From: Candidatus Bathyarchaeota archaeon
Lineage (GTDB): Archaea; Thermoproteota; Bathyarchaeia; Bathyarchaeales; Bathycorpusculaceae
Assembly: GCA_963826715.1 (NCBI GenBank)
Contig: CAWGYA010000007.1
Span: forward strand, 64,001 to 128,000
Direction: 5' to 3'
Length of the DNA stretch: 64,000 nucleotides
The notes beneath the pieces are model-generated. The model ran no database searches. It had not been told where the DNA came from and saw nothing but the letters and a program-made list of their open reading frames with translations. Every line of letters begins with the position of its first letter. Position 1 is the first letter of the stretch. The position numbers and the translations under genes are program-made. Below are positions 9,937 through 41,102 of the stretch, one piece after another.

Positions 9937-10509
9937 ATGTCGATGGAAGAGGCTTTGGGCATTAAGAAACCTGAGCCGAAAGCGCCGACTGTAGAGGATG
10001 CGTTGGAGATTGAATATTCGCCTGCTGAACTGAAGAAAATCCAGCGAGATAAGATTATTCTTGAGGAGACAGCGAATAAGGGGGCGACAATTCCTGAAAT
10101 TTACGAGATTTTACGAGAAAAGGGGCATCCTGCATGCCAAAAAACTATCTGGACAGTTCTGCACAGTGACCGCGCCACTAAGCTTAGGGAAGAGATGGAG
10201 CGTGCGCAGTGTCGGGATATTGCGCTACTGCGTGCTTATGCTTTGCAGGATAGGGATTTGAAGGCGTTGGCTGCGGCGATTGCAGCGCGTGGGCAGATGA
10301 TTAAGAATTTGACGCCTAACAGTCAGCCGAATGTGAATGTGGAAGTGAATGTCGCTAACAAAACCGAACACGTGCTCCTCGCAGAATACGCCGGTGTCAT
10401 ATCGGAAGCTGCAACTCTTAACAGCAATCTTTCAAGAGTACGTGTTGGAGAATCCTTGGATTCCGAATCGTCCTCATCCAATAACGGGAAAGAGCGGTCC
10501 GACGCCTAA
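9937..10509 (+). CDS. terS: Putative terminase small subunit
   Basis: HTH-like N-terminal half plus helical oligomerisation region; directly upstream of and overlapping terL. Confidence 0.55.
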   Translation: MSMEEALGIKKPEPKAPTVEDALEIEYSPAELKKIQRDKIILEETANKGATIPEIYEILREKGHPACQKTIWTVLHSDRATKLREEMERAQCRDIALLRAYALQDRDLKALAAAIAARGQMIKNLTPNSQPNVNVEVNVANKTEHVLLAEYAGVISEAATLNSNLSRVRVGESLDSESSSSNNGKERSDA

Positions 10510-21211: not shown

Positions 21212-22090
21212 ATGCAAAGAATGGTTGAAACCTATAGCGCAGACCAAGAACGCATCTACTACATAGCGGAAGCAACCAAAGGCACAACGCCAACAGTGAC
21301 ACCCGCAATGCTTGGAGTGCCCCATGAATCAATCAACCCAGGCTTTAACCCGAGCAATCTGCTGCTGCGAAGCGGCGGAAACTATGACCTCTTTGCCATC
21401 AAAAAAGGCGTTCGCGTGCCCTCTCTCAAAGTTGCCTATATTGTGCCCTCGGCAGCGCCGATCGACCTGTTGCAATACACCAAGATAGACCTGGATAAGA
21501 CCTTGAGCGTTCAAGCATTATACTATAAAGGCTCTTGGGCATCAGCAACCGACATCATTTCACTGCTATACAACTACATGCGGATTGGCAAGGCCAGCGT
21601 TACCTGCGAAATTGATGATGTTCTCAAAGCCAGTCTGGAAATGGTAGGTCAGAACCTCATTACGGGCACGGCAAAACTGACTGATGCAACTTACACGGAT
21701 TATGCGGGTGCAGTGGCATTCAACGAAACCGATGTTACCATTGGGGGAGCTGCAAACGATCGGGTTGTAAGCTGGAAATTCGACGTAAACAACAATCCTA
21801 AACAGGTGCCCGTTATCCGCAGCACCAACGGCTATCTAGCCAAATACATTCCTTTTGGCAATCGGCAACTAAGCGGTGAAGTTCGCTTTGAGTTTGAGAG
21901 CAAAGCAGAGATGGACAATGCCCTCGCTGATACCGAGTTCAACATTCGTTTTGGGCTTGGCGGTACCGCGTATGCTCAGATGGAGGCGGCCAAATGGAGT
22001 AACATAACCAGCGAGAAGTGGCTTGACGACTTAATCGCGGTTAGGGCACAGTTTGACGCAAAAGGACCGCTTAGCATAGCGGCAAGCTAA
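21212..22090 (+). CDS. Major tail tube protein
   Basis: Y..E.T.GTTP near the N-terminus, F.VNNN and G.R.LSGEV.FEF tube motifs. Confidence 0.82.
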   Translation: MQRMVETYSADQERIYYIAEATKGTTPTVTPAMLGVPHESINPGFNPSNLLLRSGGNYDLFAIKKGVRVPSLKVAYIVPSAAPIDLLQYTKIDLDKTLSVQALYYKGSWASATDIISLLYNYMRIGKASVTCEIDDVLKASLEMVGQNLITGTAKLTDATYTDYAGAVAFNETDVTIGGAANDRVVSWKFDVNNNPKQVPVIRSTNGYLAKYIPFGNRQLSGEVRFEFESKAEMDNALADTEFNIRFGLGGTAYAQMEAAKWSNITSEKWLDDLIAVRAQFDAKGPLSIAAS

Positions 22091-26038: not shown

Positions 26039-26980
26039 ATGAGAGCACATATTGCTTTACTTACGATCTGTCTCATTGTCTCTCTTTCAAGCCTTGCACT
26101 ACCTGTTAAAGCTCAAGAATTAGAACCGCTCAACCTAACAATCAAGCCAGATGGAAGCATTGAACCAGACACCGATGTTATTTGGCTTCAAAGAAACGGA
26201 AGCACATACACCTTTGTAGTAGATATTCTTGCTACCATAACAGTTCAAAGAGCAGGAATTACAATAGACGGAGCAGGACATACCCTTCAAGGCAACTCCA
26301 AATCATCAGGCCTCGGAGGGATAAATTTGGTTGGACATGACGAGACATTCAACGCTTACGGCAACGTCTTAGTGAAGAATCTTCGAATCATCGATTTCTT
26401 TGAAGGCATACGCACCCCCTCAAATAACAACAGCTTCATCGGCAACCGCTTTGAGAACACACGCATCCACATCCTGGGGGGACCAGCAGGAAACGTCGTA
26501 AAAAACAACTTTTTCATAAACTCAGAAATTTTTGTCGATTACAACTACGGAGGACACGATGCCATAACTGAAAACAACTTCTTTGACAGCAACATACTTG
26601 TTGATTTAGCGGATCCACCATCTGTGGATAGGAATTACTGGAGCAACTACACAACCAAATATTCTAACGCCACCCAAGTTGAAGGGCTGGGAATCTGGAA
26701 CACACCCTACGTAGATGATACTTACGCGTGGGCAACTGGCAGAAGTATTGACTACCATCCGTTAGTCAGCCCAATAACCGATTTCAAGATTCCCAACTTT
26801 GGCATCCTTGCAATGCCGACTTTGACACCTTACCCAACTATTAATACTGGTCCAGAGCCACCCAAGACAGACTTTCTTCTACCAATCTTAGTCATAGCCT
26901 CCATAGTGGCAGTGGCTGCTTTGGGTGCGGGTTTGATAGTTTATAGAAATAAACGTAAACATGTCTTAGCCGCTGGATAA
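26039..26980 (+). CDS. Secreted beta-helix (NosD-like) surface protein with TM anchor (cargo)
   Basis: Signal peptide, IKPDGSI, TIDGAGHTLQG, NYWSNY, D..PL, C-terminal TM helix and basic tail. Confidence 0.85.
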   Translation: MRAHIALLTICLIVSLSSLALPVKAQELEPLNLTIKPDGSIEPDTDVIWLQRNGSTYTFVVDILATITVQRAGITIDGAGHTLQGNSKSSGLGGINLVGHDETFNAYGNVLVKNLRIIDFFEGIRTPSNNNSFIGNRFENTRIHILGGPAGNVVKNNFFINSEIFVDYNYGGHDAITENNFFDSNILVDLADPPSVDRNYWSNYTTKYSNATQVEGLGIWNTPYVDDTYAWATGRSIDYHPLVSPITDFKIPNFGILAMPTLTPYPTINTGPEPPKTDFLLPILVIASIVAVAALGAGLIVYRNKRKHVLAAG

Positions 26981-27499: not shown

Positions 27500-27823
27500 A
27501 TGGTTCGGAAGCCTGCGCCTAAAATATTCGTTTCAAACGAACTTGCCGAATGCTTAGAGAAGCTCAGGCCAGAACACAAGATTATCAGATGGATTAACGA
27601 TATGACGGGAGTCCTTAAGGAAAATATGTACGCTGGCGAATTGATCAGGAAAAGTCAGATCCCAAAACAATACATTGACAGGTACAACGTGAACAACCTT
27701 TATCGCTATAGTCACCCTGAAGGGTTCCGCTCATGCTACACAATTCTGAACGGTTGCCCATACATTCTGGACATTATGTCGCATCCTGAATATGATAAAG
27801 TGTTTGGGTATAAGACAACCTAA
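27500..27823 (+). CDS. RelE/ParE-like toxin candidate
   Basis: G..I...QIP..Y...Y..NNLYR....G.R..YT....ILDI..H..YDK.FGY pattern. Confidence 0.55.
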   Translation: MVRKPAPKIFVSNELAECLEKLRPEHKIIRWINDMTGVLKENMYAGELIRKSQIPKQYIDRYNVNNLYRYSHPEGFRSCYTILNGCPYILDIMSHPEYDKVFGYKTT

Positions 27824-27827
27824 ATGG

Positions 27828-28109
27828 TTAAGGGATTCTCACGCTTGACTTTATCAAGGCTTCCAGTTTAGGATTGTTGACTCCAGTGTAAATTATGCTG
27901 GCTCTATCGAAGCTGATTTTTCCAGAGGCTTCCAGATAATCCAGAATACGTTTGAACGTCTGGTACTGCATTTTTCTGGGTAAACTTTTCCAGAGCTCAG
28001 TTCTTGTGGGATACTCTGTGGCGTTAATTATGGCTTTTTCTACCATCAGGATAGTGTCTAGTTTGGGTTCGTGGAGAACCTCAGTTCGTATGTTTGCCAT
28101 ATCTCTCAC
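27828..28109 (-). CDS. wHTH protein, putative antitoxin partner
   Basis: PKLDTILMVEK...ELWKSLPRKMQYQTF..ILDYLE.SGKI; convergent with the toxin candidate. Confidence 0.55.
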   Translation of the reverse strand: MRDMANIRTEVLHEPKLDTILMVEKAIINATEYPTRTELWKSLPRKMQYQTFKRILDYLEASGKISFDRASIIYTGVNNPKLEALIKSSVRIP

Positions 28110-28373: not shown

Positions 28374-28904
28374 TTATGGCGGCGGTATATCAGAGGGCTC
28401 GAGTGCTACAAACAGTTCATAACCTGAAACGTCTTTTGCAGCATATTCTAGTTGAAGTTCAAAAAAGCCTGTTGCGCCTTTGTTGATTTGTGTTATTGAA
28501 AAGCCCGGTTGCGGTGAGGTAATAGTGAGGATGGGTTCGATTTTTTCTCCTGCAGTGTTATGAACGTTCGCTGTTATGGCAAAATAGTAATCTTTGTCAT
28601 AGTCATTTCTGATTGTACCGTTGATGATAATACAGGGGTCGCCTTTGTTAACTGAATAGTCGCCTGTTGCGCCTGAACGTGAGAAGCTTTCATCATATGA
28701 CCCATAAAAAAGTTGTGAATTAATTAAATAGACTTTAGTCTCAACTCCTCCTTGATAATTGCTTGGAAAATGCAGGTAGATTTCACTTTTTGATTGGACA
28801 ATTGAAGACGTTGTTGATTGATTCCACACATAATAGACTGATAAGATTAAAAAAAGGAAGAACAAGGAAACGGCAATTGATAACAGCACGCGTTTTCGTG
28901 TCAT
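28374..28904 (-). CDS. Membrane-anchored Ig-like extracellular protein
   Basis: N-terminal TM helix; INGTIRNDY beta-sandwich pattern. Confidence 0.7.
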   Translation of the reverse strand: MTRKRVLLSIAVSLFFLFLILSVYYVWNQSTTSSIVQSKSEIYLHFPSNYQGGVETKVYLINSQLFYGSYDESFSRSGATGDYSVNKGDPCIIINGTIRNDYDKDYYFAITANVHNTAGEKIEPILTITSPQPGFSITQINKGATGFFELQLEYAAKDVSGYELFVALEPSDIPPP

Positions 28905-28917
28905 TTTTTCAGCCTTT

Positions 28918-29520
28918 TTAGGCTATCCAAGCTTGAAAGTGAATTTCGCTATTTTCCCACGCCCAACTGCAACGCGCCCATGTTCCTTGAGTAGTTGATC
29001 CAGATGCTTGAATGACATCTTGTGGTTTCTGCCATCCGTTCTGAGTTCTTGCCCATCTTATGTAAGCATGGTTATGCTGAGAAGAAGGTAGATCCATACT
29101 TCCAGTATAGTATATCTCTGCAAGAATATCAAAACGACCTATTTTTGTTGCATCAGTAGGGCTAGTATGGCCGAGATTGTGCCAAACACCCGCGTAATCC
29201 TTCACCCAGCCGTCAACAGCGGAATTCGGGGTAACAAACTGTCTGCCTTCTTGGATGTCTGCAGCGTAAGTAGCTACTACAGAATATTCAGGTCTTGAGC
29301 CGTAGTAATAAGACATAACAGTGTATTGAGAACCTGAAGTACCGGCGTCACATGTTAAAGCGCCTAGCATTGTTAAATCAGGTTTTGCAAAGTGGGATGG
29401 GACTCTAAACATGTCTACTCCTGAGCGTGGTAGATCAACAATGTCGTATGTGTAAGCTAATTCTAGCAATGTGACTCCTGATTTCGGAACCCATCCTTGT
29501 CCCGCTTGATCGTAACTCAT
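28918..29520 (-). CDS. Hypothetical protein
   Basis: 200 aa ORF with AGGAG SD. Confidence 0.65.
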   Translation of the reverse strand: MSYDQAGQGWVPKSGVTLLELAYTYDIVDLPRSGVDMFRVPSHFAKPDLTMLGALTCDAGTSGSQYTVMSYYYGSRPEYSVVATYAADIQEGRQFVTPNSAVDGWVKDYAGVWHNLGHTSPTDATKIGRFDILAEIYYTGSMDLPSSQHNHAYIRWARTQNGWQKPQDVIQASGSTTQGTWARCSWAWENSEIHFQAWIA

Positions 29521-29532
29521 GTTATTTGTCTC

Positions 29533-29670
29533 CTATGGAGCGGGTATAAAACCCGCCTTATCCTTGTTCTGTGAGTTGTAATCGTCTCTAGCTTTGGCTA
29601 TTACTTCGAACCATTTGTCGCGCTCAGCGTTTTCATCAGGCAAATTTTCAGGTAGCTTATTTTTTTCCAT
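29533..29670 (-). CDS. 45 aa hypothetical protein, first gene of the operon
   Basis: MEKNKLPENLPDENAERDKWFEVIAKARDDYNSQNKDKAGFIPAP; its TAG is in frame with the downstream ORF. Confidence 0.5.
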   Translation of the reverse strand: MEKNKLPENLPDENAERDKWFEVIAKARDDYNSQNKDKAGFIPAP

Positions 29671-29719
29671 TTTAGCTTCCTATGCATAAAGCTGGTAAAA
29701 CAATTATTTAATTCTACGT

Positions 29720-29740
29720 TTTAGTACATTGTGTACTAAA
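29720..29740. promoter_or_regulatory. Operator copy 1 (perfect palindrome TTTAGTACA-N3-TGTACTAAA)
   Basis: 50 nt upstream of the 29670 start, beside an AT-rich TATA-like box. Confidence 0.75.
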
Positions 29741-29821
29741 CGCGATACAGATTGTTGGCCTGAACTCTTATCAAGAAGAAGAAAATGCTGAAAAAAAGAA
29801 AAAGTAGCTAGTTGTGGGTTT

Positions 29822-30790
29822 CTAATTTTGTACCCATGTGTCCCAATAGTAGCTGTAGGTGCTCATGTAATGGCTTTCGTGTACTGGAGATGTGGTGCTC
29901 CAACTTGTACCGACTGAATTTGTCCAGTAGGACCAGCCTCCTGCGTTGTGTAGCCAGTTGCGGTAGAATGTCGAATGTGAGGCGTCATTGGTGAATTGTC
30001 CGTTGCTGTACACTTCATTTTGGAAGCCTGCTTGAACCCAGAGACTAGATAGGTGTCCGCTTCTGACCCAATTGTAGTTTATCCACACATCGTATTTCCA
30101 ACCGCTACCATCCTGCGTCCCGTCTAACATCATAATATAGGTGTCTGTTGCAGTTGAAGGAGTGTTCTTGTTCATGTAATACGTCATTCCACCTCCGCTT
30201 TCGTCGGAATCATAGGTGTACCATTTGTAGACTTCGCCTATATTATGAGTAACCACTACTTCAGCCCAGTTTGTGATCCCATTCAAATCACCCAATTGAA
30301 CGCAAAGGTAATGATTCTGAGTTTGCCCTGACGCCACATTCATAGAACCGCAAACTAATTCAGTGCTAACTCCTGTCCATGAATATCCGTTTGTTCTCAT
30401 GCTTGAAACTTTGCTATTCAAAGAAGTCACTCCATTGCCCTGTTGGGGAGTAACTGCATTTTCAGTCGAAGGTACTGGTATACTGATTGGCATTTTAGCC
30501 TGCTCTTCAGAAGTCAAAGCTCTTCCAATCCAAGTCGCGCCCGTCTTTGGATACCAACCCATGCCCAGCTTTTCAAGCTCAACAGTTATTTGGTCATCGC
30601 TTAGTCCTTGTTCCCTAAATTCTTGAATCTTTAAAGTTACAAGGTCAACAAAGTCTTTCGGAGGCTGCCAAGAACCAATGCCAGAAGTCTGATCATCTGT
30701 CTGCGCTGCCACTGTAAACATCATTGAAGAAAGCATCGAAACAACAAAAAAAATAGCGATTAAACAAAAAGCTCTTTTATTCTTAATCAT
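29822..30790 (-). CDS. Secreted protein with pro-region and neprosin/glutamic-peptidase-like domain
   Basis: Signal peptide; beta-rich domain with NWAEV and FQNEV, similar to the two catalytic-Glu motifs of G3 peptidases. Confidence 0.55.
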   Translation of the reverse strand: MIKNKRAFCLIAIFFVVSMLSSMMFTVAAQTDDQTSGIGSWQPPKDFVDLVTLKIQEFREQGLSDDQITVELEKLGMGWYPKTGATWIGRALTSEEQAKMPISIPVPSTENAVTPQQGNGVTSLNSKVSSMRTNGYSWTGVSTELVCGSMNVASGQTQNHYLCVQLGDLNGITNWAEVVVTHNIGEVYKWYTYDSDESGGGMTYYMNKNTPSTATDTYIMMLDGTQDGSGWKYDVWINYNWVRSGHLSSLWVQAGFQNEVYSNGQFTNDASHSTFYRNWLHNAGGWSYWTNSVGTSWSTTSPVHESHYMSTYSYYWDTWVQN

Positions 30791-30844
30791 TTCATCATCT
30801 CTCCAACGCTAAAATGCAAAGATAACCTATTAATTACTACACAA

Positions 30845-30873
30845 TAGGACAGCCTGTACTACAGCATAGGACA
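30845..30873 (-). promoter_or_regulatory. Operator copy 2 (TAGGACA-N3-TGTACTA-N5-TAGGACA)
   Basis: Upstream of 30790; context is nearly identical to 33805-33857. Confidence 0.75.
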
Positions 30874-30936
30874 GATTGCTTAAAAGTCAAAGAATGAAAA
30901 ACTAGTTTGGAATAGGCCATTTGTATGGGTTTATTT

Positions 30937-31359
30937 TTATAGGCTACCTTTACGCCATATTTTAACGGTCTCATAACAAAAGATCAAAAGAAAAACAACA
31001 GTAAGAATTACAGAAAAGAAATATTCTTGATAGAGAACGTTTGGTTGAAGAAAAGTAAGCTCAAATACAAGAGCAAAAACAGACAACAATGTGTAAAAGA
31101 AGTATCGGGGAATTATGAAGCGGCTAATTTTTATGCAATTTTGCAACATTACCCTGTTGATTACATAGCCGCTCAAATCATGTTTTACAAGCCCTACGCT
31201 TTCCAGCCTGGAAAGATGATGCTGAGCAACCGAGGGACTGCTGAGCCTTAGTACTCGCTGTATTTCTCTTATTCCAAGTGGTTTACGGGTTTTTAGCAAC
31301 ATGCGGTAAATATCAAGAGCGGTGCCTTTGAGGATATCAGTAGATTCTTTTTCGGTTAA
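30937..31359 (-). CDS. Membrane-anchored wHTH transcription factor (N-terminal wHTH plus two TM helices); start codon irregular
   Basis: LKGTALDIYRMLLK..KPLGIREIQRVLRLSSPSVAQHHLSRLE..GLV, then two hydrophobic helices. Frame extends to TTA at 31359. Confidence 0.78.
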   Translation of the reverse strand, partial: LTEKESTDILKGTALDIYRMLLKTRKPLGIREIQRVLRLSSPSVAQHHLSRLESVGLVKHDLSGYVINRVMLQNCIKISRFIIPRYFFYTLLSVFALVFELTFLQPNVLYQEYFFSVILTVVFLLIFCYETVKIWRKGSL

Positions 31360-31455
31360 CCATCTTCACCCTAATCTAAGAAATACGGTGTATTAACATT
31401 TAAGCGCTCTTATTCTCTCCACTATTCTTAGGGCTTAAGAGATAATGTGTAGAAC

Positions 31456-31473
31456 TGTACGGAAATTAGTACA
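31456..31473 (-). promoter_or_regulatory. Operator copy 3 (minus strand TGTACTA-ATTT-CCGTACA)
   Basis: Lies between the wHTH gene and divergent 31541; matches copy 6 at 17 of 18 positions. Confidence 0.65.
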
Positions 31474-31540
31474 AATATAATGTTAAATAACACACTGTAC
31501 TTTCATAAATGACTAAAAACGCTTAGAGCTTAGAAATACA

Positions 31541-31840
31541 GTGTTTGGACAAAAAACTAAAATGGGGTTGGCAGTCATCGCCGCTTTACTATTGAGCCTT
31601 CTGCTAACTGGAATAAGTTACCTTCTTGTCCCTAGCAAGTCAAACCAAACGCCTCTCCCAATGCCAGTTCCTTCAATATTAAACCAGATATTTGTAGCAA
31701 TTCTTTGGATAGGCTTAGCCGCTGCTTTAGCAATCATTATTGTTGCAACAGTTTTTCTGATAAATCGGATAAAAAACAAAAATTTTACGCAAAAACAGAT
31801 AAGAGATTCTCCATTTTCCTCAGCGTACATCAATTACTAA
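31541..31840 (+). CDS. Small two-TM membrane protein
   Basis: Two hydrophobic helices and a basic tail. Confidence 0.65.
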   Translation: MFGQKTKMGLAVIAALLLSLLLTGISYLLVPSKSNQTPLPMPVPSILNQIFVAILWIGLAAALAIIIVATVFLINRIKNKNFTQKQIRDSPFSSAYINY

Positions 31841-31877
31841 ACTATCATGTTTTTTGCTGTCTTAAAAATAAAGGGGG

Positions 31878-31975
31878 TGTACTAAATTCAGTACACTTTG
31901 TCCTAGAGCATGGTATTAACTATCTCTTGATTAGTAAGACATAGCTTGCAAGGTTATAACTTGCAAGAGATAAAA
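31878..31975 (+). promoter_or_regulatory. Operator copy 4 with promoter and leader, duplicated at 34352-34450
   Basis: TGTACTA-N4-CAGTACA-N3-TGTCCTA-N5-TGGTATTAACTATC...TTGCAAG-N7-CTTGCAAGAGAT. Confidence 0.8.
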
Positions 31976-33385
31976 ATGAAAAAAACACGTTTTGGTATTA
32001 TTTTGACAATAAGCCTTATGTTTCTAGTGCTGAGCGTTGGTTTAATTGCACCCATTCAAGGACAGTTAGCAACAAAAGAAGCCTCGCCGCTTTCTGCAGA
32101 ATCAATCATGGCAGCAATGAAGTCCCTCTCAATCTACAAATCTTCTGACAATACTTTGGTGATTGAAAGCCAGTATCAAAAAACAATCGTGGAAAAAATC
32201 ACAGATACACATTACAAAATGACTTTCATAAACTCAACGGGTTATATTAAAGTGCTCGAGGCAACAAAAGATGGCTCTAAAACAAGTGTTCTATTTGATG
32301 GCAAAGAATTGCTTAAAAATCCCACTAATACGTCATTAACCGATTCTGCTGACTTCCCATTACTTCCAATACTTTCCGCAAATCTGGCTGAATTACCCCA
32401 AGACATCGTACAAGAAGTTATGCCCATGGTTACAGATAGCATAGACCACTACAATTGGGATGGAGTCCCATTCATTTCAGGAGGTGGGGGCGGTCAAAGC
32501 ATAAAATACCCACATCCAGACAAAGAAGCCCTTTCCATCTGGATATTCGGCGACTGGTCTACTGACGGAAACTATCTACAGCATAACATGTTTAATCAAG
32601 CGGCATCTATAGCAATGGGTGAATTCGGACCATTCGGAATATCAGGCGCTATCGGTGCAGCGATTGGAGTGGCAATCGGAGGTCCATGGGGTGCGGCAGC
32701 AGGCGTAATAATTGGAACCCTCTACGGCATATACCTATGGTATTTCTACGGGTATCAAGTCCAAGATGAAGACCTAAATATATGGTGGTGGCAAAGCCTA
32801 CCATTCATACATTGGGTAAGCGAAAATGCATGGTACATTGCTGCACTAGGAGAATATGCTCTGCCTTTCGTTGAGTACGAATTCCTTACTTCAGGCTACA
32901 TTAGAATTGGCAGTTGGACATTCTTTAATGCGTTAGGCATCAGTGACCCAGCCCCACCACCGCCACCACCATCTTATTACTACGTGTCAAGCATTGCTCA
33001 AACTGGAACTTGGGGTGCCGGAGCTGTCAATAATCCAGATGGTTTGAGAGGTAGTTCAAACGATGGAAGCTATGTTCAACTATGGGGCGGTAATTATGGC
33101 GATGGAGGGCAAATAGTTGGCTGGATGAATCAGGAAGCACATGGACACATCTATCTGTATGGTCACTCGGGTTCAGGATATTACACGCACCTTTACACAT
33201 TCGTTTCATACAACAATAACAATGACTGGACACAGACAAGCGTTCAAACAATCACAGGTACTAATGATCGCTGGATTGACTGCGGCTCGTACAACGATAA
33301 TTTCAGATATATCGCTATAGCCGCCATTGATGACAATGGAATGAGTGCCAACATATTCATAGACTCAGTAAAAGTAAATCTCTAA
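31976..33385 (+). CDS. Secreted multidomain protein with glycine-zipper hydrophobic hairpin (archaeocin/pore-former candidate)
   Basis: Signal peptide, pro-like region, GISGAIGAAIGVAIGGPWGAAAGVIIG, poly-Pro linker, C-terminal beta domain. Confidence 0.6.
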   Translation: MKKTRFGIILTISLMFLVLSVGLIAPIQGQLATKEASPLSAESIMAAMKSLSIYKSSDNTLVIESQYQKTIVEKITDTHYKMTFINSTGYIKVLEATKDGSKTSVLFDGKELLKNPTNTSLTDSADFPLLPILSANLAELPQDIVQEVMPMVTDSIDHYNWDGVPFISGGGGGQSIKYPHPDKEALSIWIFGDWSTDGNYLQHNMFNQAASIAMGEFGPFGISGAIGAAIGVAIGGPWGAAAGVIIGTLYGIYLWYFYGYQVQDEDLNIWWWQSLPFIHWVSENAWYIAALGEYALPFVEYEFLTSGYIRIGSWTFFNALGISDPAPPPPPPSYYYVSSIAQTGTWGAGAVNNPDGLRGSSNDGSYVQLWGGNYGDGGQIVGWMNQEAHGHIYLYGHSGSGYYTHLYTFVSYNNNNDWTQTSVQTITGTNDRWIDCGSYNDNFRYIAIAAIDDNGMSANIFIDSVKVNL

Positions 33386-33546
33386 GTAGCTTTCAATATA
33401 TCCTTTCTTTTTTTATTTTTTTTGCGGTTTAGCTTTTCACTCAATCTATGGATTAAGCGCTTAAATTGAAATGTTGATATATCTTTTCAGCGATAAAAAA
33501 TAACAAGAAATACCTTTTTGGAAATTGCTGTTCTAAGAGAAAATGG

Positions 33547-33768
33547 TTATGTGTTAACTATTTGGATAGGGTTTGCTTGTCGGTATTTTATATGAATAAA
33601 GATTGCAACCGACAAGAGAACAATGCCCATGATACCAATCGTCAAAGTTAATGACCAAAAGATTTGTGCACCCTCTGAAATAAAATACATTATAAAAGAA
33701 TAAAGTATTGCAGCGCCTCCAACAGCGCCTAACCCTCCGACTAATCGATCTCTAACCGACTTATTCAT
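33547..33768 (-). CDS. Small two-TM membrane protein (immunity candidate)
   Basis: Two TM helices, GGAGG SD, own operator copy. Confidence 0.7.
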   Translation of the reverse strand: MNKSVRDRLVGGLGAVGGAAILYSFIMYFISEGAQIFWSLTLTIGIMGIVLLSVAIFIHIKYRQANPIQIVNT

Positions 33769-33828
33769 CTTTTATTGCCTCCCTATGTTATCGACTATAT
33801 GCCCGATAAGCTATTAATGACTATAGGA

Positions 33829-33857
33829 TAGGACAGGGTGTACTACCTGTTAGGACG
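33829..33857 (-). promoter_or_regulatory. Operator copy 5 (TAGGACA-N3-TGTACTA-N5-TAGGACG)
   Basis: Upstream of 33768; same architecture as copy 2. A degenerate divergent copy lies at 33909-33950. Confidence 0.75.
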
Positions 33858-34351
33858 GCGGTTTGATTGTCAGCATCTTGCGAGAGAAGTAACGTCGACT
33901 CTACTTGTCGTACTAACCTCTGTACCATTTTGCCCTAGTGTATGGGATTAATTATTGAATTAATAGATAAAAGGAGTGTTGAAGTGACTGATGAAGAATC
34001 GCCCGACGGCAAACTAACAAATTAAGTTGGTTTATTATCACTTTTTTTGATGCTCCTCCTTCTGTCCTACCCAGAATAGGAAAAAGAAATAGGGCATTCC
34101 TACAAACCAGGAGTCTATGGACTTCTTTTTCTTACCTAAAATGCTCCTTGAGTTTAAGCATGTAAACTGTCTAACTGTCCATGGCTCATTATCTACTCAG
34201 CCTATACATTGTCAAGGCTTAATAGAAGGATGATGGCGCACCTTGGGCTTGGATGCTTTATGACAATGTTTGTCGCTTGTTTTTCAAAAAGGGGCTGGTA
34301 ACAGCTTTGTAGATTTGAGTATTCACTTTAGCTAAAATAATTAGTGCTGTC

Positions 34352-34450
34352 TGTACTAAGTTCCGTACAATTTGTCCTAGACAATAGTATTAACTATCTA
34401 TTGTTTAGTAAGATAACCATTGCAAGGATTTAACTTGCAAGAGATTAAGA
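34352..34450 (+). promoter_or_regulatory. Operator copy 6 with promoter and leader, duplicate of 31878-31975
   Basis: TGTACTA-N4-CCGTACA-N3-TGTCCTA-N5-TAGTATTAACTATC...TTGCAAG-N7-CTTGCAAGAGAT. Confidence 0.8.
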
Positions 34451-34452
34451 AA

Positions 34453-36321
34453 ATGGAAGTCGAAAAATTTAGGAAAATTAGAAAAAATCCGATTGTTTGC
34501 ATGCTGCTCATTGCCCTAATGCTTTCCAGTTGCGTTGTTATCAAATCTGTCGTTGCTGACCCCGTTGGATATCAAAATGTTAGTGTTCAAGAAGCAAATA
34601 ATCTCATCTCTAATGATTCTCATGTCTTCATTTTGGACGTGAGAAACCAGAGCGAGTATAATCTAGGCCATCTTAATGGTGCTACACTTTTACCTTTATA
34701 TGAAATTCAAGACTGGAACTGGAATATCACGTCTGGACAGCCATCCCTAAACTTACTCCAAGCGCACATCAATGATACAGTTATAGTTTATTGCAAAGCT
34801 GGTTCTAGAAGTGCGCCTGCCTGCCAATTACTAGTGGAACATGGCTACACTAATGTGTATAACATGGAAGACGGAATCGTTGGCTGGATGCAGGCGGATT
34901 TTCCTCTCAACACACGATACCATCATATTCAGGCTGAAAGTATGAGTGAAATAGACATAGAACCTTTGCTTCTTTACCAAACCGAATGTATCACGTGCCA
35001 AAACCAATCGACATGTTCAATGGCTGATGCTCTCCCTGCAAACAGTAACTTTACAGTCGTAGAACAAAATGCTACACATACTATTCTCTCCATAATTGGT
35101 GAGCTAAACGGTACCTTAACCGAATACACAGTGACCTTAACGCTACTTTCTAGCTACTCAACTATAGAGGATGGTACGAACAAAACAGCAACTATGATGT
35201 CTATGGCGATGACATCTACAACCTTTGAGCAGATATATTATGCATTAAAATACAGGGCGGAAAATGATGCCTATAACTTTACCGTGGTTTCCAGCCTTAT
35301 ACCAACAAACCTACAAACGTATAACGCGTCCGTTTCATATATCAGCATTGACCATAATAACGCATCGCCCGGTGACGTAATAAAGACTCAGGAAACTATA
35401 GATACAAACTCTTCGATGACCTTATCGGAATACTACAACATTTTGAGTAAAGTTTCAAAAGAACTGAGTGAAGAGTACGGAGATAGCGAGGATTATTCAA
35501 TCGAACAACTAGAGAGTGACTACAAATCAATTAAAAACGAATTGAATAGCTTATCACAGATCGTTGAACAACAATTCGCTGATCTGGACAAATCAATAAC
35601 TGAGCATTCAAGAACCATAATGGGCGTAGACTTAGGGATAAAAGACCCTAACGGAGTCACTAACAACGGCTTTGAGAGCGGGCTAAGCGGCTGGACTACA
35701 GGTGGAAATGGTTACCACTGTAACGGCGCTGAAGTATACGAAGGATCATACTCCTTGCTGCTAGGACGAGGCGATTGGAACCCTCCGCCCGGTCAAGACT
35801 GGGCCTATCAATTGGTAACCCTGCCTGAAGACGCAGTCAACATTGTGTTTGGCTACTATTATCGGCTGTATACCTACGACACTCATTCATATGACCGTCT
35901 TGAAATCTATGTAGCAAAATTAGGACAGGATCCGGTTCTATTCTACGATGTGGGACAATATGGCACTCGCGGCAACTATTACGTTGATGGCTGGATGGGT
36001 GTTTTCCATGATTACAATATGCAAACCTACGCTGGCAGTAGTTTTTACATATACTTTCAAGTCGTGAACGGAGATAATACTTATCCTACATGGGCATATA
36101 TCGACAGGGTTTCTGTGTCATATGAAGAAATCTATGAGTGCAGCTGGGAATCTTGGCTTAATTGCGCTTGGGGGGATTTTGATACTGCAACGCTTTGCGG
36201 TTGGATATTGGATATTTGCGATGAAGCTCCTTCGGAATATAATCCAGCATGTGCAGCAGGACTGATTTGCTCACTTTCCTACTCGCTCTATTGTGCACTT
36301 GAATACTGTGTAATTAACTAA
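34453..36321 (+). CDS. Secreted rhodanese-domain protein with CBM-like domain and Cys-rich C-terminal peptide
   Basis: Signal peptide; ILDVR..EY..GH..GA and VYCKAGSRS rhodanese motifs; NNGFESGLSGW beta-sandwich; 8 Cys in the last 61 aa. Confidence 0.75.
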   Translation: MEVEKFRKIRKNPIVCMLLIALMLSSCVVIKSVVADPVGYQNVSVQEANNLISNDSHVFILDVRNQSEYNLGHLNGATLLPLYEIQDWNWNITSGQPSLNLLQAHINDTVIVYCKAGSRSAPACQLLVEHGYTNVYNMEDGIVGWMQADFPLNTRYHHIQAESMSEIDIEPLLLYQTECITCQNQSTCSMADALPANSNFTVVEQNATHTILSIIGELNGTLTEYTVTLTLLSSYSTIEDGTNKTATMMSMAMTSTTFEQIYYALKYRAENDAYNFTVVSSLIPTNLQTYNASVSYISIDHNNASPGDVIKTQETIDTNSSMTLSEYYNILSKVSKELSEEYGDSEDYSIEQLESDYKSIKNELNSLSQIVEQQFADLDKSITEHSRTIMGVDLGIKDPNGVTNNGFESGLSGWTTGGNGYHCNGAEVYEGSYSLLLGRGDWNPPPGQDWAYQLVTLPEDAVNIVFGYYYRLYTYDTHSYDRLEIYVAKLGQDPVLFYDVGQYGTRGNYYVDGWMGVFHDYNMQTYAGSSFYIYFQVVNGDNTYPTWAYIDRVSVSYEEIYECSWESWLNCAWGDFDTATLCGWILDICDEAPSEYNPACAAGLICSLSYSLYCALEYCVIN

Positions 36322-36382
36322 ATTCCTTTTCTTTTTTGACAAAAAAGTTATTAAGAAAAAACGACTAAAAGGATGATTAAAT

Positions 36383-36724
36383 ATGAACCCATTGGATAAC
36401 CTTATTCAAGGATTTGCTTGGTCAATAATCGTAATTCCAGTTCTCGTTTTGATCATAGGCTCAATAGCTTCATACTTCTTGCCGAAACATAGAAAAACGA
36501 TTGGGATTTCGCTAATAACGCTTGGGGCTTTAGGAACTGGTTTGTTTGCCTTGACTCTTATTATAGGGATCGTTGAAGGACTTAGTAGAAGCTTGACGTC
36601 AGAGACTTTTTTATTAACCGTTTTACTCGTTATCGAACTCATAACATTAGCCGTTGGAGCGCTTTCACTAAAGCCAAGAGACCAACAAATTGGTATAACG
36701 AATAGACCAACAGGTCATGTCTAA
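36383..36724 (+). CDS. Small three-TM membrane protein (immunity candidate)
   Basis: Three hydrophobic helices directly downstream of the secreted protein gene. Confidence 0.7.
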   Translation: MNPLDNLIQGFAWSIIVIPVLVLIIGSIASYFLPKHRKTIGISLITLGALGTGLFALTLIIGIVEGLSRSLTSETFLLTVLLVIELITLAVGALSLKPRDQQIGITNRPTGHV

Positions 36725-37271
36725 GCCTACGTTGCCGCCATTTGCTCGACATCCACTCGTTATCTAACATAACTCCCGTAAAACAACTTGAGTTATAGTC
36801 GAGCTGGTGATCTACCCTGGTGCAACAAAGCCAAAGTAAGATTCACCTTTTTTTTACTTAAATACTAAATCGTAATTTCGGAAGTGCCTGCTTACTATCA
36901 AGGTTATGCCTGCGATGATATTAAATATTCCATAAATAGTACAATTGTGTTTCCGATGCCCCGAACCCAACGTCGACAAATTTCCCTCCCCATTTTTTTT
37001 AAGAAGCAACATCATTATGGAACAGCCTCCCAAAAAGTTGGATAGTCTTCAGGTAAATAATGACTATTCTAAGCTGCAAAGAATCGATTTTTTTCGCTCG
37101 GAAGTTGCGTTTTTCGCCATACCAGAACTCTTACTTTCTTCAAGTGTACATTATGTGGCTTTACGATACGGGAGGCTGAATAAAGGAATGAACGATGCAA
37201 ATACAAAGATCTTAAGGAAGGTTAGTGTAATTTGGATTTTTCCCCTTTGCTGCTTAAGGCTGCCTGTGAGA

Positions 37272-37694
37272 TTAGGCTTGTGACTGTTTGGTTCTCTTGT
37301 ATTCTTCGTACTTGTACAGTGCTTCGCTTATTTGGCTGCGTATGAATTGCTCCGGACTGCGAAATGGTGTTCCCATTTCTTTTAGGGCTTCTTCGAGCTC
37401 GTTATACTGCTCACGGGAGACTTCTAGGAATTCGTTATCGTTTTTCAATCGTTCTAGTCGGTAGCGTATAGCGTCACGGACAAAGTCCTCTTTGTTGGTG
37501 AAGCCTATGTCTTTGTTTTCTTCAATGAAGTTTTCCACTTTAGCAATGACTTCAGGCGGAAGAATAACCGACTGCTGCAAGAGGGCGTTTATGGCGTCTT
37601 GGTAAGTTTGCATTTTGTTTGTCTCAGCGGTGAGCTCTCCTAGGAGACCGGTTAGTTTGCTGTGGATGTCGTCTGAGATTTTTATTGCTTTCAT
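37272..37694 (-). CDS. Ribbon-helix-helix regulator (repressor candidate)
   Basis: MKAIKISDDIH..L and a second RHH motif (GF.NKEDFVRDAIR); divergent from 37799. Confidence 0.75.
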   Translation of the reverse strand: MKAIKISDDIHSKLTGLLGELTAETNKMQTYQDAINALLQQSVILPPEVIAKVENFIEENKDIGFTNKEDFVRDAIRYRLERLKNDNEFLEVSREQYNELEEALKEMGTPFRSPEQFIRSQISEALYKYEEYKRTKQSQA

Positions 37695-37798
37695 GGGTAT
37701 TTCTCCTGTTAACAGAAGTATGATTAGTAGGATTAGATTTATAAGGTTTCTCATTGTAACGGAGTTAACTAAGTTAACTATAAGGGGAATTGTGAGAA

Positions 37799-38011
37799 AT
37801 GAAAGCAAAAGTCGCCTTCACCATTGATCAAGCGGTCCTAAAAGAAATAGACGCCTTAAGGGACCTAGCAACGCGAAGCGCCTTCGCCAATGAAATCCTC
37901 AAACAAGGACTCAAAGCATACAAGGCAACGCATAAGCGACCCAAGGCGCCATTTCCAGCCGTGACCTTTGATACGGCTGAGGAAACAGCATTAGCGAGGG
38001 AGAGACCATGA
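37799..38011 (+). CDS. Small RHH/CopG-like regulator
   Basis: KVAFTID..VL.EID.LR...TRSAF.NEIL..GL. Confidence 0.75.
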   Translation: MKAKVAFTIDQAVLKEIDALRDLATRSAFANEILKQGLKAYKATHKRPKAPFPAVTFDTAEETALARERP

Positions 38012-38253
38012 CGGAAGGACATAAAGTTTGCCCCTTAGCCGCAGCCCATCCTCAACAGGGAAATAGCGATTGCCTAGGCGAAGCGTGCGCATGCCACGTA
38101 AAAATGCAAAAGCCACGCTTAATGCAAACAGGCAACACCAGCCTCGTTGATCCAGAAAGTTTCTATCGCTATGTCGGATGCGGATTGGTGGCACATATTC
38201 CCTGGGAACTTGTCAACTGCGAAAACGACTCTAAAATCAAACAAGTAAATTAG
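38008..38253 (+). CDS. Small Cys-rich protein
   Basis: CPL, CLGEACAC and GCGL motifs; ATGA overlap with the upstream gene. Confidence 0.6.
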   Translation: MTEGHKVCPLAAAHPQQGNSDCLGEACACHVKMQKPRLMQTGNTSLVDPESFYRYVGCGLVAHIPWELVNCENDSKIKQVN

Positions 38254-38257
38254 CCAG

Positions 38258-39553
38258 GTGCAAAACTGCAGGAATGAGGAGTGGGAGGGAATGGTTGGAT
38301 ATTCAAGCGGGGTTAAGTCTCCTAATGTTTTTAGCGCCTTCTCCAGTTCTTCCGCTTGTGGATCCACGCTTCAAGAAAGCATCCCCCTAAACCCACCTTG
38401 CCCTCAATGTAACTCAAAACGGCTATGGCGAGACTCCAAACGTTACACAGCCGCTGGAGACGAAATACAAAGATGGCTCTGCAGGGAGTGCGGCTTAAGA
38501 TTTTCCGATCCAAATGACATCAAAAAAGCCGGCACGGCAGTTGCAACAGTTGAAAGAATTGAAACGAAGACATTAAAAAGCGCAAACAACAACTTCTCTA
38601 CAACCCAAATCTGCGTAAAGGAGACGAAAAATTTGGATGCAGAACAACAGACCACTGGAGTTCTGCGGAGCAACCAAGCAGACATCAAAGGCAAAATCGT
38701 TGAACACGCTTTCTGGATGCAAAAAGAAGGATACGCCGAAGCAACAATCTCACGCCGCATACGCTTTCTAAAAACAATGATGAACAAAGGAGCCAACTTA
38801 GCAGACCCCGAATCACTAAAAGAAATGCTAGCCCGACAACAAAACTGGCAAGCAAAAACCAAAAAAATAGCAGTCGAAACCTATAGCCTCTTCCTAAAAA
38901 TGCAAGGCTTAACCTGGAACCCACCAAAATTCAAAAGCGTCAAAAAACTGCCATTTATCCCAACAGAGCAAGAAATCAACAGCCTAATCGCAGGCAGCAA
39001 CAGAAAAACAGCAACCTTCCTACAACTACTCAAAGAAACAGGCATGCGATGTGGAGAAGCCTTCCTACTCAAATGGACCGACTTCAACTTCGAAAACAGA
39101 AGCGTCGACATAACACCAGAAAAAGGCAGCGAACCAAGACAACTACCAATCTCAAATCAGCTAATAGCAATGCTAAACAGCCTACCAAAAGACCAAGAAA
39201 AGCCCTACGGATGCAGCGAGCGACATTTCGCAAGAGCCTTCCGCCTACAAAGAAGCCGAATAGCCTTTAATCTCAAAAACGACCGCTTAAAAAAAATCCA
39301 CTTCCACACCCTACGCCACTGGAAAGCCACCACTGAGTACGCTAAAACCAAAGATATCTTACACGTAATGAAGCTACTCGGCCACAGAAACATCCAAAAC
39401 ACCCTACTGTACACTCAGCTCATCACTTTCAAAAACGACGAATTCCACAGCGCAACCGCCAAAACCGTTGAAGACGCACAAAAGCTCGTTGAGGCAGGAT
39501 TCGAATATGTATGTGACTTTGGAGACGTAAAACTATTCAGGAAGCGAAAGTAA
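38258..39553 (+). CDS. Tyrosine integrase with N-terminal Zn ribbon (element B)
   Basis: ETGMRCGE, K, HTLRH, LGH and catalytic Y motifs; ends 48 nt before the att copy. Confidence 0.93.
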   Translation: MQNCRNEEWEGMVGYSSGVKSPNVFSAFSSSSACGSTLQESIPLNPPCPQCNSKRLWRDSKRYTAAGDEIQRWLCRECGLRFSDPNDIKKAGTAVATVERIETKTLKSANNNFSTTQICVKETKNLDAEQQTTGVLRSNQADIKGKIVEHAFWMQKEGYAEATISRRIRFLKTMMNKGANLADPESLKEMLARQQNWQAKTKKIAVETYSLFLKMQGLTWNPPKFKSVKKLPFIPTEQEINSLIAGSNRKTATFLQLLKETGMRCGEAFLLKWTDFNFENRSVDITPEKGSEPRQLPISNQLIAMLNSLPKDQEKPYGCSERHFARAFRLQRSRIAFNLKNDRLKKIHFHTLRHWKATTEYAKTKDILHVMKLLGHRNIQNTLLYTQLITFKNDEFHSATAKTVEDAQKLVEAGFEYVCDFGDVKLFRKRK

Positions 39554-39601
39554 AATGACTAAAAAATTGAACAAAATCATCGCCAATAGGGCCACTGGAA
39601 A

Positions 39602-39619
39602 TGTGGTGAGGCCGCTGGG
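39602..39619 (-). repeat. att site: second tRNA 3'-end fragment
   Basis: TGTGGTGAGGCCGCTGGG is identical to 325-342. Confidence 0.85.
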
Positions 39620-39665: not shown

Positions 39666-41102
39666 TTATGTAACCTCCTTGCGGAAAAGCTCTTTAAGAT
39701 GCTCAGCAAGCAATGAGAGCTGATGATTCTGTTTCTGATCTAGAGCTTCAGTGATGTTTCCTCGGAACATTGCGTCTTTGGTGAGTATTTCTTCAGGGTT
39801 TCCGCCCCATGCCCTGATGATCTCTTTTAGTTGGTCAATGCGGTTTACTTCGGTTTTTGATCTGATTGTTATCCCAGAGGTTGCGTAGAGATTTCTCAAG
39901 GTTTCGATGCCTAAGCTTTGAACGTCTGTGTATGTGTCGATAGTGTGTCCCATCATGTATTCCACAAGTTCGGGGTCGATCTTTGCGATGCTCATTTGGC
40001 TTCGGAAGAATTTGCGTAGACTGTGAACTCTTACGCTATACATCCAGCTGTTAGGTAGTTTCTTTGCGATATTTTCGCCGACAGCAAGTTCGTGTATTAT
40101 GTCTCTAATTGCTTTTTCAGTAACGCCTAAAATCTTGTCTGCTATGCGGCAGTTACGGATAAGTGGTGATTCATCTGTTAACTGCTCGGGTGGGAAATAC
40201 CTGTTGCCTCGTCGTCTTTCATCGATGTAGCTTTTTAGCAGGCTGCAGGCTTCAGCGCCAAGGAACGTGTCGTAGTCGTGGTATTTGCCTTTGGTGATTT
40301 CTGCTTCAACATGAACGTGGATAGGGATGCGATTTGCTTCTAAGTCCTCGCGGATGTGGCGGTATTTGAGTTTTACAAAGGTTCCTATGCGGAATCCACC
40401 TGTTGATATGGCTGCGATGATAAAAGCTTCTCGGGTAGCGGAATTATCAAGCATTGTGGCTATTTCTTGAGGTTTTGGAGCTCTGTCTTTGTAGATTACT
40501 TTGCGTTTTAATGGCTCGTCGAGTTCAACTTTTTTGACGCCGTTAGCTCGGTAAAAGGTTTTTACTGCTTTAATGCGATTGCATACAGCGTTGGGTGCAA
40601 GACCTGCATCTTGGAGTTCTGCAAGATAATCGAGTAGAAAGCCGCAGTGCGCTTGGACACGCTGCTGGTCAGGTATGGCACCCGCGGGTTTAACGTCTGC
40701 TATTATTGTGTCGGGGCTGTGTCCTAGCCACTCAGCGTATTTTTTTAATTTTGTTGAGTACATTAGACAGCTTGCTTTTGAGGCTGAGCAGTGACGTAGG
40801 AAATGCCTCGCCATTCTTTGCATGCTGGGGTATTCGAAAATATAGGGAATTATGCCTGGTTGGTGCTCGATACAGCTGCGTATGATATAGTCGATGAGTC
40901 CTTTCTCTTGGGCGGCTAAAATTTTGTCGAGTTTCATGATTACTGTTTTTCGTAGACGGTAGCCGTTTAAGCTTTTTTCGATGGCAACGGTGTCCCCTTG
41001 GATTATCAGCGGTAGGTTGAGGCTTTTTAGTTCTTCGACGGAAAGTTTATGATTTCGGGTTATGGGAGAGGTTACGGTAGCTTTCGCTATAGATATGGTC
41101 AA
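39666..41102 (-). CDS. Tyrosine recombinase/integrase (different family from 38258..39553)
   Basis: TGGFRIGT, ITKGK, HSLRKFF, MMGH...Y motifs. Confidence 0.88.
   Translation of the reverse strand: MTISIAKATVTSPITRNHKLSVEELKSLNLPLIIQGDTVAIEKSLNGYRLRKTVIMKLDKILAAQEKGLIDYIIRSCIEHQPGIIPYIFEYPSMQRMARHFLRHCSASKASCLMYSTKLKKYAEWLGHSPDTIIADVKPAGAIPDQQRVQAHCGFLLDYLAELQDAGLAPNAVCNRIKAVKTFYRANGVKKVELDEPLKRKVIYKDRAPKPQEIATMLDNSATREAFIIAAISTGGFRIGTFVKLKYRHIREDLEANRIPIHVHVEAEITKGKYHDYDTFLGAEACSLLKSYIDERRRGNRYFPPEQLTDESPLIRNCRIADKILGVTEKAIRDIIHELAVGENIAKKLPNSWMYSVRVHSLRKFFRSQMSIAKIDPELVEYMMGHTIDTYTDVQSLGIETLRNLYATSGITIRSKTEVNRIDQLKEIIRAWGGNPEEILTKDAMFRGNITEALDQKQNHQLSLLAEHLKELFRKEVT

Follow-up and report, generated by a model that had tools for sequence, protein, structure and literature searches.

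Among archaea, ArnR and ArnR1 of Sulfolobus acidocaldarius have been described as membrane-bound one-component activators of the archaellum; the published account gives ArnR a helix-turn-helix (HTH) at the N-terminus, HAMP and sensing domains and two C-terminal transmembrane (TM) helices, and places two TCGAC-N5-GTCGA boxes upstream of the target promoter (PMC6396743). Here we describe a 64,000-nucleotide stretch of the genome of a Bathyarchaeia archaeon (the window), in which a provirus (provirus A) carries the gene for a winged helix-turn-helix (wHTH) protein with two TM helices, among genes for exported and small membrane proteins whose promoters share one operator motif. Among the papers listed by the literature searches, none besides those on ArnR describes a Bathyarchaeia or archaeal membrane-anchored wHTH family and, comparing layouts, we infer that the window regulator is closest in design to ArnR. 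Gene regulation in the Bathyarchaeia is nearly unknown, and the lineage, abundant in sediments and peat, has few cultures.

Several other described systems bear on this locus. ToxR and CadC are membrane-tethered regulators with an OmpR-type winged helix, one TM helix and a periplasmic sensor domain, and ToxS is a small partner encoded beside ToxR. In the SdpR/SdpI system of Bacillus, the activity of an ArsR-type regulator depends on the membrane. Halocin C8 is the Cys-rich C-terminal fragment of a larger precursor that has immunity function, and moron or lysogenic-conversion cargo is known from temperate tailed phages. Neprosin (MEROPS G3) is a glutamic peptidase that uses the glutamates E188 and E297, has a prodomain with a lysine plug (K118) and is activated by acid (PMC9343461).

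The window lies on contig C7 of this genome (window position 1 is C7:64,001), which also carries a sister provirus (provirus B); C6 is a further contig of the same genome. Loci used for comparison are numbered L001 and onwards, and the sequencing runs compared are X1, X2, X9 and X20.

Operator arrays and the wHTH regulator family

The operator is composed of half-sites TGT[AC]CTA / TAG[GT]ACA that lie about one helical turn apart, two to three per target promoter. TAGKACA has 20 matches in the 64-kb window against 10.6 expected, a count reached in 1 of 100 shuffles, and 15 of the 20 fall between 29722 and 36943. The whole genome (2.64 Mb, 8 contigs) contains 272 half-sites, or 0.103 per kb; at that rate this 7.25-kb stretch, with its 15 half-sites, would be expected to hold 0.75, and its intergenic DNA (1,992 bp) holds 14 against 0.2 expected. 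Clusters of at least two half-sites within 40 bp number nine genome-wide, five of them here and two beside a regulator paralogue on contig C6. The motif arrays reported in a first-pass annotation of this DNA are thus real, and they occupy six promoters between 29.7 and 34.4 kb of the window.

Five target promoters have a common plan on the coding strand: half-site-N5-half-site-N2-3-half-site, then 4-6 nt and a TATA-like TAG(A/T)AAT(A/T)AA box, with the start codon 40-75 nt past that box. Arrays of three half-sites precede the gene for a 322-amino-acid (aa) protein (30845-30873, abutting the TATA-like box) and that for a 73-aa protein (33829-33857), and the arrays before the 479-aa and 633-aa genes (31878-31905 and 34352-34379) belong to copies 1 and 2 of a portable promoter. 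The operator of an operon for 45-, 200- and 176-aa proteins is a palindrome of two half-sites only, TAGTACA-N3-TGTACTA (29722-29738), followed on the minus strand by the TATA-like AAACGTAGAATTAAATAA. The sixth operator, TGTAC-N6-TAGTACA (31456-31473), separates the divergent genes of the regulator and a 99-aa protein and is a candidate for autoregulation.

The regulator (30937-31359, minus strand, ~140 aa) matches LexA_DNA_bind (PF01726; 4.3e-06, 26.8 bits against a cut-off of 23.7), which places it among the wHTH proteins; no further Pfam domain was found in it. It falls below every cut-off of the Pfam models HTH_5 and HTH_20 and of the NCBIfam lexA, ArsR and SdpR models, the last of which scores 16.9 bits against a cut-off of 100. 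The N-terminal ArsR/LexA-type winged helix extends to about residue 75 of 143, the first of the two C-terminal TM helices starts near residue 85, and the loop outside is about 10 residues long. With 822 matches at E<=0.001 among 832 candidates, which where named are called ArsR, LexA or wHTH proteins of Bathyarchaeia and lie on contigs of up to 3.3 Mb, the regulator belongs to what is, as judged from its sequences, a large, unnamed Bathyarchaeia family. Nine family matches are found in this genome. Mean column identity in a 28-member alignment is 64%, both TM helices and invariant charged residues within them included. The family profile, run against PDB sequences, retrieved only Pumilio repeats with per-stretch E-values of at least 2.9, which we took as chance.

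Because the family is ~140 aa long, the 121-aa open reading frame (ORF) listed for the window is an artefact of starting at ATG (the first ATG is at 31302). Among 67 family genes, 14 have no in-frame ATG, GTG or TTG ahead of the conserved LKG motif, and in nine of these 14 TTA occupies the codon at which 15 relatives have TTG. Genes without a canonical start include those of the window (TTA at 31357-31359, minus strand) and of L001, L003, L005, L006, L016, L020, L029 and L038. A strong Shine-Dalgarno-like element, GAGGTGA or GGGGTGA, ends 6-8 nt upstream of the TTA-start genes; either UUA would initiate translation in them, or they would be N-terminally truncated. The idea of a 1-nt insertion at the regulator's 5' end relative to P0003 was replaced by this TTA at the family's TTG position once the 67 genes were compared. 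Reads from run X1 agree with the window at the start, but X1 is probably the window's source, and X2 barely covers the position.

A scan of one genome per species yielded 191 relatives of the regulator; 80 loci were kept, and the 47 closest, all from other genomes, were used for density counts. Half-sites occur at 4.25 per kb in the 160-bp flanks of the regulator gene versus 0.226 per kb at more than 1.5 kb from it. The position of the divergent operator is conserved in 18 of the 47 loci by the strict motif and in 26 by a relaxed one, and this upstream site adjoins a conserved TTATTTAACGTTATATTT element. Of the 45 loci whose sequence reaches far enough downstream, 22 show a site just past the regulator and 17 show at least two; this downstream array is followed by a TATA-like box and then by the next gene. 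The recurring architecture, TGTCCTA-N5-TAGTACA-N2/3-TGTCCTA and then a TATA-like TAGAAATAA, is that of the array before the window's 322-aa gene. The linkage of motif and regulator in other genomes, which the first-pass annotation had left to be checked, thus bears out its notion of a regulon around a membrane-anchored wHTH protein.

The operator also changes with the regulator. More distant paralogues have TGTTCTA..GAACA in place of the window motif, and the 52%-identical paralogue of provirus B sits among TGTTCTA sites. Both operator and recognition helix could be parsed in 20 loci; six more had an operator and an unparsed helix, and 21 had no operator by the pattern used. Where the recognition helix carries Gln (SSPSxAQ[HY]H), the upstream operator is TGTAC..GTACA in 12 of 12 cases; where T, A or N takes its place, it is ..GAACA or ..GGACA in 8 of 8.

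Divergent from the regulator lies the gene for the 99-aa protein (31541-31840, plus strand), which has two TM helices and a PxPxP loop, and which has 19 BLAST matches in the loci (alignment A4). Its BLAST cluster is present in 27 of the 80 loci, nearly always divergent from the regulator. In L029, L030, L035 and L044 the same two TM helices enclose an extracellular insert of ~340 aa that is beta-helix-like by its repeat pattern and akin to the window's 313-aa protein. Since the cluster keeps this arrangement and occurs in such fused forms, we read the 99-aa protein as a putative conserved partner of the regulator, possibly its co-sensor, and not as an immunity gene linked to an effector. A predicted complex of the regulator's TM region (residues 50-121) with the 99-aa protein scored 0.00 in a run without controls, which gives no verdict either way.

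Exported proteins as targets and their cassettes

In the loci from other genomes, 46 distinct ORFs of at least 100 aa start 20-110 nt past an array, and six of these are regulators. The remaining 40, from 25 loci, have an N-terminal hydrophobic segment, by a threshold of our own, in 38 cases versus 208 of 745 background ORFs (odds ratio 49). The 322-aa family, present in 10 loci and placed directly after the regulator in at least five, recurs among the targets, and pairs of exported proteins of ~289 and ~385 aa are a recurrent target. In the window, hydropathy recovers the inventory of the first-pass annotation: three exported proteins (322, 479 and 633 aa, each with an N-terminal hydrophobic signal), three mini-proteins with two or three TM helices and the wHTH protein with two.

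The most conserved target, as far as sequence comparison goes, is the 322-aa protein (29822-30790, minus strand), an exported glutamic-peptidase-like zymogen according to its AF2 model (pLDDT 84), with a prodomain and a beta-sandwich of neprosin/eqolisin type. Its closest solved relative is neprosin, whose zymogen was the top match in Foldseek. The model aligns with mature neprosin at Z 17.2 (rmsd 2.8 A, 194 aa aligned) and with the zymogen, prodomain included, at Z 17.0 (residues 66-322 against 34-378); scores are lower for eqolisins (Z 14.5-15.4) and for GH16-type glucanases (about Z 13). By its fold the protein thus belongs with the glutamic peptidases that combine this beta-sandwich with an N-terminal prodomain, and the earlier label 'neprosin-like' was well chosen, even at a sequence identity of ~10% to neprosin. 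E177 and E259 are invariant in 42 sequences of the family. Nearly all of the 117 homologues are 50-86% identical, none is annotated, and bog, wetland and peat samples are the source of several relatives; the family looks like that of a conserved zymogen-like protein rather than of a polymorphic toxin.

The 469/479-aa exported protein (31976-33385, plus strand; the 479-aa protein) is modular, with an N-terminal domain, a helical glycine-zipper domain that is modelled with high confidence, a poly-Pro linker and, at residues 331-469, a jelly roll resembling the carbohydrate-binding modules (CBMs) CBM32 and CBM6 and discoidin (Z 10-13.5). Run on the whole model, Foldseek and VIA-align report this C-terminal domain only, and the ESM Atlas gave no usable match. 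The three modules occur independently of one another in 372 relatives.

The 622/633-aa exported protein (34453-36321, plus strand; the 633-aa protein) consists of a rhodanese domain, a middle domain, a C-terminal domain and a Cys-rich tail. Residues 56-158 match Rhodanese (PF00581, 1.1e-17), which assigns this part to the rhodanese family, and CKAGSRS, readable in the translation, is the putative active-site Cys loop. Compared with proteins of 342-1,089 aa, the Cys-rich tail (residues 550-622) retrieved nothing beyond the cluster to which the protein itself belongs. The two exported proteins are unrelated to each other in sequence, as the first-pass annotation had it, but both draw on one pool of shuffled domains. 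Neither NCBIfam nor PHROGs added a named family for the module proteins.

The promoters and leaders of the 479-aa and 633-aa genes are ~100-bp copies of each other, ~85% identical. Each of the two genes is accompanied by one for a small TM protein: the 73-aa protein (two TM helices; 33547-33768, minus strand) has its own array, and the 113-aa protein (three TM helices; 36383-36724, plus strand) begins 61 nt after the 633-aa gene. In a wetland run from another study (X9), one contig, ~98% identical across the 633/113-aa stretch, runs from 31876 straight into 34352, so that the 479-aa and 73-aa genes are lacking there together. The 2,475-bp skip has its junction at promoter copy 2; after 37078 the contig continues with a further promoter copy and then unrelated DNA. 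The 479-aa plus 73-aa and the 633-aa plus 113-aa genes do behave as cassettes. Contigs of the RNA library X20 cover 34663-36310 and 36505-36778, a weak hint of expression only, because DNA can occur in such libraries.

Both copies of the leader contain a hairpin, CTTGCAAG-N7-CTTGCAAG, just before the start codon of the 479-aa gene (31945-31967, plus strand, -11.2 kcal/mol) and, as a second copy (-8.3 kcal/mol), before that of the 633-aa gene (34420-34441). The same hairpin occurs twice in L001 (5400 and 6549), again just before two gene starts. It could be an element for leader stability or translation, or a second binding site.

The palindromic operator at 29722 is followed first by the 45-aa ORF (29533-29670, minus strand), then by the gene for the 200-aa protein (28918-29520, minus strand), which has no signal peptide, and third by that for the 176-aa protein (28374-28904, minus strand), which has an N-terminal TM anchor and a 58.5% identical paralogue in provirus B. 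A GxGWxPKxGxT motif is all that the 200-aa protein has in common with the prodomain of the 322-aa protein; hhalign of the 322-aa family against the 200-aa protein gave a probability of 2.8%, which is not significant.

The provirus and the spread of the module

The first-pass annotation placed these genes on a provirus, and the boundaries agree. By gene content, the locus represents the cargo, or accessory part, of a temperate head-tailed provirus of ~39 kb in a Bathyarchaeia archaeon. An exact 18-bp direct repeat marks the two ends of provirus A, attL-like at 325-342 and attR-like at 39602-39619. It encodes a terminase large subunit (10349-11857, plus strand; phrog_979, 2.2e-92), a tail tube protein (21212-22090, plus strand; PF18906, 3e-15), an HK97-gp10-like protein and a tyrosine integrase (38258-39553, plus strand; PF00589, Phage_integrase, 3.6e-20), so that terminase, tail genes, integrase and flanking direct repeats of a Caudoviricetes-like provirus are all present. 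The cargo is flanked by the tail genes on one side and by the integrase/att end on the other; its G+C content (0.40) is close to that of the host (0.41), with 0.48 in the structural genes of provirus A.

Four units of this region have no array upstream. These are the gene for the 313-aa protein (26039-26980, plus strand), which has a signal peptide and a C-terminal TM helix by hydropathy; two small cytoplasmic genes (27500-27823 and 27828-28109); and the gene for a 178-aa protein (37272-37808, minus strand), which provirus A, provirus B and L001 all keep next to the integrase, with two small genes lying between the two in provirus A. The 313-aa protein has an 89% identical copy in provirus B, and BLAST links it to the fused proteins of L029, L030, L035 and L044, to whose insert it is related.

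Over C7:152062-193175, provirus B shares 70-91% DNA identity with window positions 715-27357 and 37285-39619, the shared DNA starting at 715 and ending at 39619. Between the homologous parts its DNA and gene content are different, yet this stretch includes the 52%-identical regulator along with a gene resembling that for the 99-aa protein and several genes for exported proteins. The ends of provirus B are a 23-bp repeat overlapping the 3' end of tRNA-Pro(GGG). Its cargo also includes a TrmB/ArsR-like HTH gene followed by a PIN-domain gene (L091 3283-4234, C7:181283-182234), possibly a toxin-antitoxin pair.

From 39.6 kb the window continues with a second, convergent head-tailed provirus (39620-64000; integrase 39666-41102, terminase 60200-61648). 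Its cargo slot contains a Dnd phosphorothioation system at 51.5-57.7 kb (DndB, DndE, SMC-like, PAPS-reductase-like and cysteine-desulfurase-like genes) as well as a helicase and a Schlafen/AlbA_2 protein. Collinear with this second provirus is the IMG/VR contig L097 (terminase 84% identical), which has a regulator module with arrays in place of the window's 16.6 kb that includes the Dnd system.

The regulator family is mostly chromosomal, with its 191 relatives in genomes at one genome per species versus one full-length relative in 2.9 million viral contigs, and on contig C6 a copy has thiolase, HtpX and further housekeeping genes as neighbours. In the left flanks of L009, L010, L001, L002, L005 and L030, an integrase and conserved small genes (clusters 13 and 20) lie less than 6 kb from the regulator module, with no tail genes in view; the module may also travel on small integrative elements or provirus remnants.

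Two further observations concern the proviruses themselves. Immediately left of attL lies a 216-aa integrase fragment (C7:63563-64255, window -437 to 255) that shares 70% identity with the C-terminal half of provirus A's integrase and may be the remnant of an earlier element at the same site. Both proviruses of the window have an ABC-ATPase-like gene near the terminase (3440-4593 and 58744-60192; phrog_11143 and phrog_293); that of provirus A is apparently split into ORFs of 249 and 145 aa.

Readings of the regulon and comparison with known systems

The regulon is probably a membrane-tethered one-component switch for secretome and cell-surface genes that has been captured as exchangeable viral cargo. 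The regulator would bind the arrays as dimers or higher oligomers and would control its own gene together with genes for exported or surface-anchored proteins, here the glutamic-peptidase-like zymogen, the CBM-tailed glycine-zipper protein, the rhodanese-fused protein and the small TM proteins. Its signal would come from the membrane or from a partner protein, and activation appears somewhat more likely than repression, since the arrays sit just upstream of the TATA-like box. Moved as cassettes behind the portable promoter, the targets would be exchanged between viruses and hosts. For the lysogen the most likely function would be lysogenic conversion through an altered secretome or cell surface (extracellular proteolysis, glycan binding).

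Several points weigh against this reading. A site upstream of the regulator is found by the strict motif in only 18 of the 47 loci, and because the genomes are related, the linkage and co-variation counts are not independent events. The window regulator lacks a canonical start at the family's usual place, with TTA instead of TTG, and it may have lost its N-terminus and its function, a paralogue then acting in trans. The first protein past the 29722 operator (45 aa) and the 200-aa protein after it have no export signal. The 322-aa protein matches no Pfam family, including PF03080, which is absent from this genome, and the family profile (A2) has 0 matches to PDB sequences at E<=10; E177 and E259 are candidate catalytic residues only, and their equivalence to E188 and E297 of neprosin, like that of a prodomain lysine to K118, is putative. 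Finally, the glycine-zipper domain and the Cys-rich tail could be membrane-active.

The last point leads to the explanation that the first-pass annotation had favoured, in which the exported proteins, or peptides cut from them, are archaeocins that kill competitors, the 73-aa and 113-aa TM proteins protect the producer and the membrane regulator is the switch. The candidates would be the 479-aa protein's glycine-zipper domain or the hydrophobic, Cys-rich orphan tail of the 633-aa protein, possibly released by the co-regulated glutamic peptidase, which could mature such precursors. Large exported proteins are indeed paired with small multi-TM proteins (479 with 73 aa and 633 with 113 aa here, 274 with 100 and 239 with 106 aa in L001), the first pair is present or absent as a unit, and many proteins contain the 479-aa protein's modules in shuffled form. 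We nevertheless regard this explanation as unlikely. No toxin, bacteriocin, halocin or immunity family was matched by the module proteins in Pfam, NCBIfam or PHROGs (PADLOC was not searched). The labels 'effector' and 'immunity' sit poorly with a 322-aa family that is conserved across its 117 homologues and with a 99-aa protein that accompanies the regulator and no effector. The modular proteins related to the 479-aa protein share the C-terminal CBM-like domain and vary N-terminally, the reverse of polymorphic toxins. Relatives of the 633-aa protein have the rhodanese and middle parts in common and end in TM anchors (two in L038) or in a CBM-like domain (L012), which fits display on the producer's own surface. 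For the 73-aa and 113-aa proteins, neither the 80 loci nor this genome contains a relative in which co-variation with effectors might be followed. In addition, the regulator family is mostly chromosomal, and in some lineages the same regulator and array stand before a transporter.

That transporter bears on a second alternative, an envelope- or secretion-stress response, in which the regulator and its two-TM partner would sense membrane or S-layer damage or load and would switch on surface proteins, a protease and, in certain lineages, an exporter of MacB type; viral copies would then serve superinfection exclusion or receptor masking. In L013, L019, L022, L040 and L042 a MacB/FtsX permease and an ABC ATPase follow the same regulator and array, charged residues in the TM helices are invariant, a member of the 99-aa family resembles the PspC/LiaF TM region (E 0.0058), and the cargo occupies the usual place of conversion genes between tail genes and integrase. 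This account overlaps largely with the secretome switch and differs from it only in signal and purpose; with the PspC match below the Pfam cut-off and no known stress-response family found, we consider it quite doubtful in this specific form.

That the motif just belongs to a repeated promoter spread by recombination, the wHTH gene being a mere neighbour and no regulator being dedicated to it, is very improbable: the ~85% identical copies before the 479-aa and 633-aa genes do mediate cassette loss, but in genomes whose regulators share 50-87% identity it is the half-sites that are conserved and not the DNA between or around them, the position of the half-sites is fixed relative to the regulator gene, and they co-vary with the recognition helix.

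The secretome switch can be extended into a wider picture that we hold to be speculative and rather unlikely as a whole, in which minimal membrane-tethered wHTH regulators, each with a two-TM co-sensor and its own operator dialect, would be the main switch of secretome and surface in Bathyarchaeia, and the viral cassettes would be antagonism or exclusion modules whose precursors are matured by the peptidase. More immediately, the locus offers a testable cis-regulatory code, consisting of an operator, a candidate regulator and a specificity residue, that is kept across dozens of genomes and stands over exported proteins; with this operator, secretome regulons could be predicted from metagenome data. 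Such a regulon travels as exchangeable cargo of archaeal viruses and takes the slot that a Dnd defence island fills in a related provirus, and the 322-aa family would, by its model, add an archaeal family with the neprosin/eqolisin glutamic-peptidase fold.

How does the locus compare with the systems described above? Set beside ArnR, the regulator is likewise archaeal, with the HTH at its N-terminus, two TM helices at its C-terminus, inverted-repeat boxes upstream of the promoter and surface structures among the presumed targets. It differs in its length of ~140 aa with no HAMP or sensing domains between HTH and TM helices, in its separate conserved two-TM partner, in its operator, and in targets that are exported enzymes and binding proteins. 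The tethering of a DNA-binding domain to the membrane is common to ToxR/CadC, and the small membrane partner encoded beside the regulator recalls ToxR/ToxS; however, the window regulator has an ArsR/LexA-like wHTH, two TM helices and a ~10-residue loop, and it has no match to Trans_reg_C. An ArsR-type regulator linked to the membrane also recalls SdpR, and a Cys-rich C-terminal tail on a larger exported precursor (the 633-aa protein) recalls halocin C8; both likenesses are by description, the first with the SdpR model far below its cut-off and the second with no sequence relationship shown.

The 322-aa protein has, by model and alignment, the fold of neprosin and the eqolisins (G3/G1), including the zymogen prodomain, together with two invariant glutamates; it stands apart from neprosin in its ~10% identity and its lack of PF03080 or PDB sequence matches. 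The position of the cargo between tail genes and integrase/att, its host-like G+C, its own promoters and its varying content between sister proviruses are those of phage morons. Unlike these, the cargo described here brings its own membrane-tethered regulator and operator code, which are also present as host-chromosomal modules.

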